Assembly: GCF_003334305.1 (NCBI RefSeq)
Contig: NZ_QOWS01000015.1
DNA: 64,000 nucleotides
DNA from: Escherichia coli
GTDB lineage: Bacteria; Pseudomonadota; Gammaproteobacteria; Enterobacterales; Enterobacteriaceae
Reading direction: 5' to 3' (one strand)
In this document: positions 51,110 to 51,554 of the stretch, piece by piece
Numbering within the stretch: position 1 is the first letter of the stretch
Layout of the letters: each line of letters starts with the position of its first letter
Made by a program: the position numbers and the translations under genes
Notes under the pieces: model-generated
The model's database searches: none
Told to the model about the DNA's origin: nothing
What the model saw: the letters and a program-made list of their open reading frames with translations, nothing else

Positions 51110-51466
51110 AGTCGCTGCCATTTATTCAGATAAAGAGTGCGTGGATGGTAGCAGAATTTCGCGTTGCTTACCGCCTGTTGTTAAGTGATTTGATCGATGG
51201 TTGTTAATGATGTCAACGATGGCGCAAAAAATGCCCGCTTTTGGTGCGCGCTGCGTCAGAATGGCGCAGTAATTTCCAGTAAATTTCGTCAATGATCACA
51301 ATTCCAGAATTATATTTTACTTCTGCATAACATTGCGTTTTTTATTCTTTTTATTCACCCACATCGCAAACGTATTCACTTTATATGCACTTTAAATGCA
51401 TATGGTTTGGTTATAACTCCTTGATTTCCAGTTAGCCTCCGCCGTTTATGCACTTTTATCACTGGC

Positions 51467-51482
51467 TGGCACGAACCCTGCA
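51467..51482 (+). promoter_or_regulatory. Sigma-54 promoter-like element TGGCAC-N5-CTGCA upstream of astC
   Basis: GG/GC dinucleotides spaced as in the -24/-12 consensus, about 75 bp upstream of astC; ast operon is known to be NtrC/sigma-54 and ArgR controlled. Confidence 0.6.
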
Positions 51483-51554
51483 ATCTACATTTACAGCGCA
51501 AACATTACTTATTGTTAACATATAAATAACGAATTATTTACTGTAGAGGTCGCT

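Follow-up and report, generated by a model that had tools for sequence, protein, structure and literature searches.

Which elements of the DNA between xthA and astC of Escherichia coli govern the ast operon, and do their sequences fit control by nitrogen and arginine? The question was addressed in a stretch of 64,000 nucleotides of an E. coli chromosome, referred to here as the window, and all positions are those of the window. Of 5426 complete E. coli genomes, 5425 contained region 51050-51620 at at least 90% identity, and its flanks were always annotated as xthA (exodeoxyribonuclease III) and astC (succinylornithine transaminase). According to the annotation, astC occupies 51555-52775 on the + strand as the first gene of astCADBE and is followed by astA, astD, astB, and astE in this order. 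The xthA gene, encoding exonuclease III, occupies 50303-51109 on the - strand, as given by the RefSeq annotation of identical DNA and by a tblastn match of 100% over residues 1-268. The divergent gene pair named by the first-pass annotation of this DNA was thus borne out by genome matches and RefSeq annotation alike. The start of the spacer, which had been placed at 51122, had to be corrected to 51110, because the longest open reading frame (from 51121) had been taken rather than the annotated start; annotated XthA begins with MKFVSF at 51109. The spacer parting xthA from astC therefore spans 51110-51554. Across nearly all E. coli genomes, its identity is 98.8% or higher. Two small open reading frames on its - strand, 51122-51292 and 51376-51501, were taken as mechanical ones, and a permissive Rfam scan of 50000-53000 returned no family, the best hit being a chance-level mgtC leader (E=0.44).

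Conservation was analyzed with one genome per species, and 80 loci encoding AstC were returned. In most of them, from many genera of the Enterobacteriaceae, xthA is the divergent neighbor. The xthA-astC spacer typically measures 423-448 bp, with extremes of 390 and 506 bp (loci L003-L082), and the distances of the NtrC-like, IHF-like, and sigma-54 elements described below are fixed to within 1 bp across these loci. On the xthA side, the supplement of Kim 2012 gives a promoter sequence with a transcription start 29 nt upstream of the gene. This start falls at 51138 on the - strand and is served by a -10 hexamer TACCAT (51150 to 51145) that is preceded by C. The conserved block 51146-51157 beside xthA is accounted for by this promoter.

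On the astC side, TGGCAC-N5-CTGCA at 51467-51482 had been read as a -24/-12 element, and this reading held in every detail. TGGCAC (51467-51472), GAACC, and CTGCA (51478-51482) follow each other on the + strand within the 17-mer CTGGCACGAACCCTGCA (51466-51482), in which GG at 51468-51469 represents -24 and GC at 51480-51481 represents -12. The two doublets are exactly 10 bp apart, which is the spacing of sigma-54 promoters. No other stretch of the 64 kb fits TGGCACN5YTGCW exactly, where 0.22 matches would be expected by chance and at least one match occurred in 20 of 100 shuffles; when one mismatch was allowed, the pattern was no longer rarer than chance. A position weight matrix (PWM) was built from the 41 intergenic sigma-54 ChIP-seq motifs of Bonocora 2015 with astC excluded. 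Scanned over both strands, it placed the astC 17-mer at the top of the 64 kb with 17.7 bits, compared with a median of 15.6 bits for the training sites; shuffles yielded 0.1 such matches per 64 kb.

The same conclusion was reached from published binding data. Table 1 of Bonocora 2015 lists the identical 17-mer as OS17, an in vivo sigma-54 ChIP-seq site for astC that is flagged as experimentally confirmed in EcoCyc. Its predicted start lies 62 nt before the ATG and thus corresponds to 51493. The orthologous site of Salmonella Typhimurium, TGGCACGAATGCTGCAAT (STM1303), was bound by sigma-54 in ChIP-chip. In gSELEX, peaks of both RpoN and NtrC lay inside the astC/xthA spacer, and the source counts astC as one of a small number of RpoN promoters with experimental confirmation. 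The motif at 51466-51482 is thus the sigma-54 promoter published for astC and was already known. Among relatives, CTGGCAYGA-N4-TGCA is found 87-91 nt before the ATG in 39 of 39 Enterobacteriaceae loci. GG and GC are invariant in all of them and the N5 spacer varies (positions 10-13); an invariant pair of doublets around a variable middle marks selection acting on the contacts of sigma-54. Taken as a whole, the spacer is very probably the divergent control region of xthA and astCADBE, with 51466-51482 acting as the astC sigma-54 promoter.

The scan for NtrC sites, performed with the consensus TGCACCAnnnTGGTGCA quoted from PMC8743547, gave two candidates upstream of this promoter. Site 1, TGCCCGCTTTTGGTGCG (51232-51248), agrees with the consensus at 10 of 14 positions and is centered at -253 from the predicted sigma-54 start. 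Site 2, TGCGTCAGAATGGCGCA (51252-51268), agrees at 11 of 14 positions, is centered at -233, and lies 20 bp from site 1. A third, weak half site may be present in ATGTCAACGATGGCGCA (51210-51226; 8/14), of which the right half, TGGCGCA, is conserved. NtrC-like sites are not rare singly, as 28 with at least 10/14 occur in the 64 kb; about 0.5 close pairs would be expected by chance. The case for the two sites comes mostly from conservation. The GC..GC core columns are precisely the conserved ones in both sites, and TGCACCA occurs at NtrC-like sites in many genera. Outside Escherichia, 33 of 35 species had a site of at least 9/14 at -253/-254, at -233/-234, or at both, and most of the 35 had the one at -253/-254. 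We infer from this pattern that the pair at 51232-51268 is the NtrC enhancer, its exact assignment being putative. A published NtrC ChIP-seq peak was assigned to astCADBE; its interval (1830021-1830101, in older coordinates) falls near the promoter rather than at -240, and the gSELEX peak falls near xthA, so that neither resolves the sites.

Just downstream of site 2, the sequence GTAAT-N5-GTAAA was noticed at 51269-51283, the G positions of which are poorly conserved outside Escherichia. It resembles a CpxR box. One paper states that astCADBE has a CpxR binding site.

The first-pass annotation had further described TGAAT/ATTCA-like half sites at about 51300-51400 as ArgR boxes. Half sites are indeed present, enriched, and arranged as a phased array at 51322-51401, but they are not literally TGAAT: TGCAT occurs at 51324, ATTCA at 51353 and 51374, ATGCA at 51385, overlapping ATGCA/TGCAT at 51396/51397, and ATGCA at 51448. 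These seven TG(A/C)AT or AT(T/G)CA half sites within 141 bp (51320-51460) form the unique maximum of the 64 kb; shuffling of local dinucleotides would give 1.33 (P=0.0004). For scoring of complete boxes, an ArgR PWM was derived from ten K-12 operators of NC_000913.3 (carAB, argECBH, argI, argF, argA, argG, argD, argR, artJ, and artP), whose boxes reached a median of 12.6 bits in leave-one-out scoring. An array of four boxes in steps of 20-22 bp, starting at 51322, scored 13.1 bits. It was the best in the window, with 4.4 bits for the next best, and the sole significant one (P=0.0015 against shuffles).

The putative boxes are 18-bp imperfect palindromes in tandem, with spacers of 2-3 bp and 21-bp phasing. 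Pair I (51322-51359) consists of TCTGCATAACATTGCGTT (51322-51339) and TTATTCTTTTTATTCACC (51342-51359) separated by tt; its boxes are weak, scoring 5.1 and 0.8 bits. Pair II (51363-51401) consists of ATCGCAAACGTATTCACT (51363-51380) and TATGCACTTTAAATGCAT (51384-51401) separated by tta. It scored 2.8 bits at 51363 and 2.2/4.4 bits at 51384/51385, and an alternative register, 51374-51391, scored 9.9 bits; two registers fit, and the box boundaries are uncertain. With 0.8-5.1 bits per box against the median of 12.6, the boxes are weaker than those of the characterized operators. Weak boxes would suit an accessory site that has low affinity and depends on arginine, and they also make an assignment from the DNA sequence alone less secure.

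Comparison among relatives lent weight to the array. Averaged over 35 species, the ARG PWM peaked at 51322 (7.2), 51363 (6.1), 51374 (7.8), and 51385 (3.7), and several boxes scored higher in other genera than in E. coli. The inner half sites of pair II, ATTCA-N7-TGCAC, are nearly invariant, as are the columns ATTCAC..TATGCA..TG(A/C)AT. The array spans -171 to -92 and thus lies between the NtrC-like sites and the promoter, a position that fits an accessory arginine boost by ArgR. Closer to the promoter, the conserved sequence TTTATGCACTTTT (51446-51458) repeats TATGCACTTT of the ARG box at 51384, 64 bp apart. It is a candidate for an extra ArgR half box just upstream of -24, and its score with the full-box PWM is low. 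A further box considered at 51304-51321, CCAGAATTATATTTTACT (5.0 bits), was rejected; it is out of phase with 51322 and its mean score in other species is 0.9, although its left part is invariant.

The nitrogen and arginine control that the first-pass annotation named for ast agrees with the literature, which states that NtrC and ArgR control astCADBE, and with RegulonDB, which lists RpoN, RpoS, ArgR, and NtrC as regulators of astC. Papers citing the primary work report ArgR binding sites in astCADBE and induction by ArgR with arginine; they describe ArgR plus arginine as boosting this sigma-54 operon in an accessory role. The main text of an ArgR ChIP-exo paper does not mention ast.

The same matrices pointed to other sites in the window. 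The strongest double ARG box, TCTGAATATTTTTGCACT taa ATATGATGAATAATCACT (20669-20707), is located where two diguanylate cyclase genes, cdgI (yeaI) and dgcJ (yeaJ), meet. Its 17.4 bits are within the range of the genuine operators argR, artJ, artP, and argD. About 85 bp upstream of it on the same strand is the sigma-54-like sequence TTGGCACGGTTTTTTCA (20791-20807, - strand), the third best in the window with 16.3 bits. This motif is not mentioned in the main text of Bonocora 2015. The sigma-54 site published for yeaG (OS18 of Bonocora) is found as ATGGCATGAGAGTTGCT at 25742-25758 on the - strand. The astC and yeaG motifs are 25.7 kb apart in the window versus 34.7 kb in MG1655 coordinates; the strain therefore appears to be without about 9 kb that are present in K-12 between these promoters and is not MG1655.

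Two further conserved elements were found in the spacer, neither of which corresponds to a regulator named for astCADBE in the sources consulted. At 51414-51426 on the - strand, AATCAAGGAGTTA matches the IHF core consensus WATCAANNNNTTR exactly and is centered at -73 from the predicted sigma-54 start. It is one of four exact matches in 64 kb, where 2.8 would be expected. It recurs at -72/-73 in 38 of 40 loci, and its four N positions vary. An A/T-rich tract 5' of the core is absent, the flank 51427-51445 (TTCCAGTTAGCCTCCGCCG, + strand) not being A/T-rich, and IHF is not among the astC regulators listed in RegulonDB. On the strength of the conserved core, IHF may bind here.

The best conserved part of the spacer is block 51281-51320, AAATTTCGT..GATCACAATTCCAGAATTATATTTT, which was recognized by its conservation across genera. 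Its core of 22 bp, GATCACAATTCCAGAATTATAT (51295-51316), is almost invariant, is more conserved than the NtrC-like and ArgR-like sites, and contains the near-palindrome ACAATTC-CA-GAATTAT. The ArgR PWM gave the block no support outside E. coli. The block contains a CRP-like half site, TGTGATC (- strand), with a fit of 7/10 to TGTGA-N6-TCACA, and the Lrp-like sequence CAGAATTATATTTTA. A perfect TATAAT is also present on the - strand of the invariant block, from 51314 to 51309. The block was considered as an xthA promoter and rejected, as the xthA start is at 51138 and Kim 2012 lists none near 51302. By ChIP, astC is reported to be a direct target activated by Lrp, and CRP-cAMP is reported to lower ast expression; Lrp and CRP are accordingly named here as candidate binders of 51295-51316. 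Tentatively, the IHF core and the 22-bp block could be functional yet uncurated parts of a larger ast nucleoprotein complex, in which IHF and ArgR would be architectural and a third regulator (Lrp, CRP, or another) would sit between the NtrC and ArgR sites; we regard this as possible and rather doubtful.

The same observations bear on another reading of the repeats, namely that the TGCAT/ATTCA sequences are not ArgR operators, that they reflect Lrp, IHF, CRP, H-NS, or AT-rich composition, and that ArgR acts elsewhere or indirectly. Each ast box scores far below canonical ARG boxes, Lrp and CRP-cAMP are both reported to influence ast, and the ArgR PWM does not account for the block of the spacer that is best conserved. 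Against this stand the enrichment of half sites and the 21-bp-phased array, both of which exceed composition-matched shuffles, the peaks of the PWM among orthologs at 51322 and 51363 (weaker at 51385), higher in other genera than in E. coli, and the reports of ArgR sites and of ArgR induction with arginine. We consider this reading improbable and retain ArgR binding to the array at 51322-51401 as the preferred one.

The transcription start was examined next to these elements. The astC leader (51493-51554, + strand) begins with the start predicted for sigma-54 at 51493 and contains a Shine-Dalgarno sequence, GAGG, at 51546-51549. Kim 2012 mapped the astC start at 51498 in mid-log cells grown in M9 glucose with NH4Cl, and no start was seen at 51493 in these nitrogen-replete cells. 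A mapped start incompatible with the position of the -12 element had been named as evidence against the promoter. Counted from the C of the GC doublet at -12, the start at 51498 is 17 nt away, too far for sigma-54, which starts transcription about 12 nt downstream of this doublet; yet it does not refute the sigma-54 promoter, because it was mapped with ammonium present, when NtrC is inactive.

A second promoter probably gives rise to the start at 51498. A sigma-S/sigma-70-type -10 element, TC-TACATT (51484-51491, + strand), directly adjoins the -12 element. Its hexamer occupies 51486-51491, with a C at -13 as is typical of sigma-S, and the distance from the hexamer to 51498 is exactly 7 nt. 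The sigma factor is assigned by established promoter rules. The starts of the two astC promoters would lie a few bases from each other. Among relatives, block 51483-51505 hardly varies. No good -35 was found for this promoter (TGGCTG), and a scan of the spacer with the sigma-70 consensus gave nothing relevant and no enrichment; both results would be expected if the promoter depends on sigma-S or on an activator. The listed regulators of astC include RpoS, and the RpoS dependence of ast is well documented. That the sigma-54 site is only poised and rarely used, astC being transcribed in practice from the 51498 promoter, draws on this mapped start, on the RpoS dependence, and on the caution of Bonocora 2015 that occupancy by sigma-54 is no proof of productive transcription, but it is highly unlikely given the ammonium in the mapping experiment, the dominance of NtrC control of ast under low nitrogen in expression analyses, the EcoCyc confirmation of the site, and the constant distance of the enhancer sites, kept by 33 of 35 species. 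Use of both promoters under different conditions fits all data.

The remainder of the leader was also inspected. The fold of 51493-51580 was no better than that of shuffled sequences (z = 0.32). A conserved block, TTAACAT ... AAC ... TTATTTA (51513-51541), lies 3' of both starts. Its TGTTAA-like repeats resemble ArcA boxes. In a ChIP paper on ArcA, astC is named eight times.

With both promoters in place, a mechanism can be proposed. Under nitrogen limitation, sigma-54 RNA polymerase would occupy the -24 GG and -12 GC as a closed complex, and phosphorylated NtrC would assemble about 240 bp upstream of it on the enhancer pair (51232-51268). Through a DNA loop, NtrC would contact the polymerase and drive ATP-dependent promoter opening, with transcription predicted to start near 51493. 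The loop may be shaped by arginine-bound ArgR on the four weak ARG boxes (51322-51401), where ArgR presumably acts architecturally, and probably also by IHF on the conserved core at -73. Shaping of the loop by ArgR would account for "superinduction" by arginine without ArgR being essential. The looping roles of ArgR and IHF and the start at 51493 are put forward as the likely arrangement. The second promoter (TACATT, start 51498) would serve carbon starvation, stationary phase, and basal expression.

Promoters of the glnHp2 type combine a -24/-12 element with an upstream pair of NtrC sites and an IHF site between them. The astC region is like glnHp2 in having a -24/-12 element, an upstream pair of NtrC-like sites, and an IHF-type core between. 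Unlike glnHp2, its putative enhancer is unusually far upstream (about -233/-253), a sigma-S-type promoter overlaps its core, and an ARG-box array intervenes, so that ArgR with arginine would be a second, ligand-dependent DNA-bending modulator. The array itself shares with the canonical ArgR operators (argF, argI, carAB P2, argECBH, and others) paired 18-bp boxes with spacers of 2-3 bp, whose half sites, TG(A/C)AT / AT(T/G)CA, all face the same side of the helix. The canonical operators overlap -35/-10 elements, repress, and reach 18-30 bits per pair, whereas the ast boxes lie well upstream, reach 6-8 bits per pair, and act positively.

The closest known counterparts are the orthologous regions themselves. 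The E. coli K-12 astCADBE region (Kiupakis and Reitzer 2002, as cited elsewhere), described as having a sigma-54 promoter for astC with NtrC and ArgR sites and in addition a sigma-S promoter, is the same locus with the same flanking genes. In MG1655, the 17-mer and the published 51-nt promoter sequence are identical to the window, and there is no substantive difference. The ast region of Salmonella Typhimurium has the orthologous -24/-12 element, and activation by arginine via ArgR is described for it (Lu and Abdelal 1999, as cited elsewhere). The locus of S. enterica subsp. arizonae (L046) agrees with E. coli in spacer layout, in the IHF core, and in the ARG half sites. Salmonella departs from E. 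coli in the spacer bases of the promoter and in the outer half sites of the ARG boxes.

The feature corresponds to the astC control region known from earlier work; its observation was confirmed and its interpretation supported. Descriptions of the astC sigma-54 promoter and of its control by NtrC and ArgR date back to about 1998-2002, and genome-wide ChIP has since re-confirmed both. The analysis is of value for calibration, as a reading of the sequence alone led to a genuine promoter and to approximately the correct operator zone, and base-level coordinates are now given for each element of this spacer. The IHF core and the 22-bp block provide modest leads on how a distant NtrC enhancer may communicate with its promoter via protein-bent DNA.
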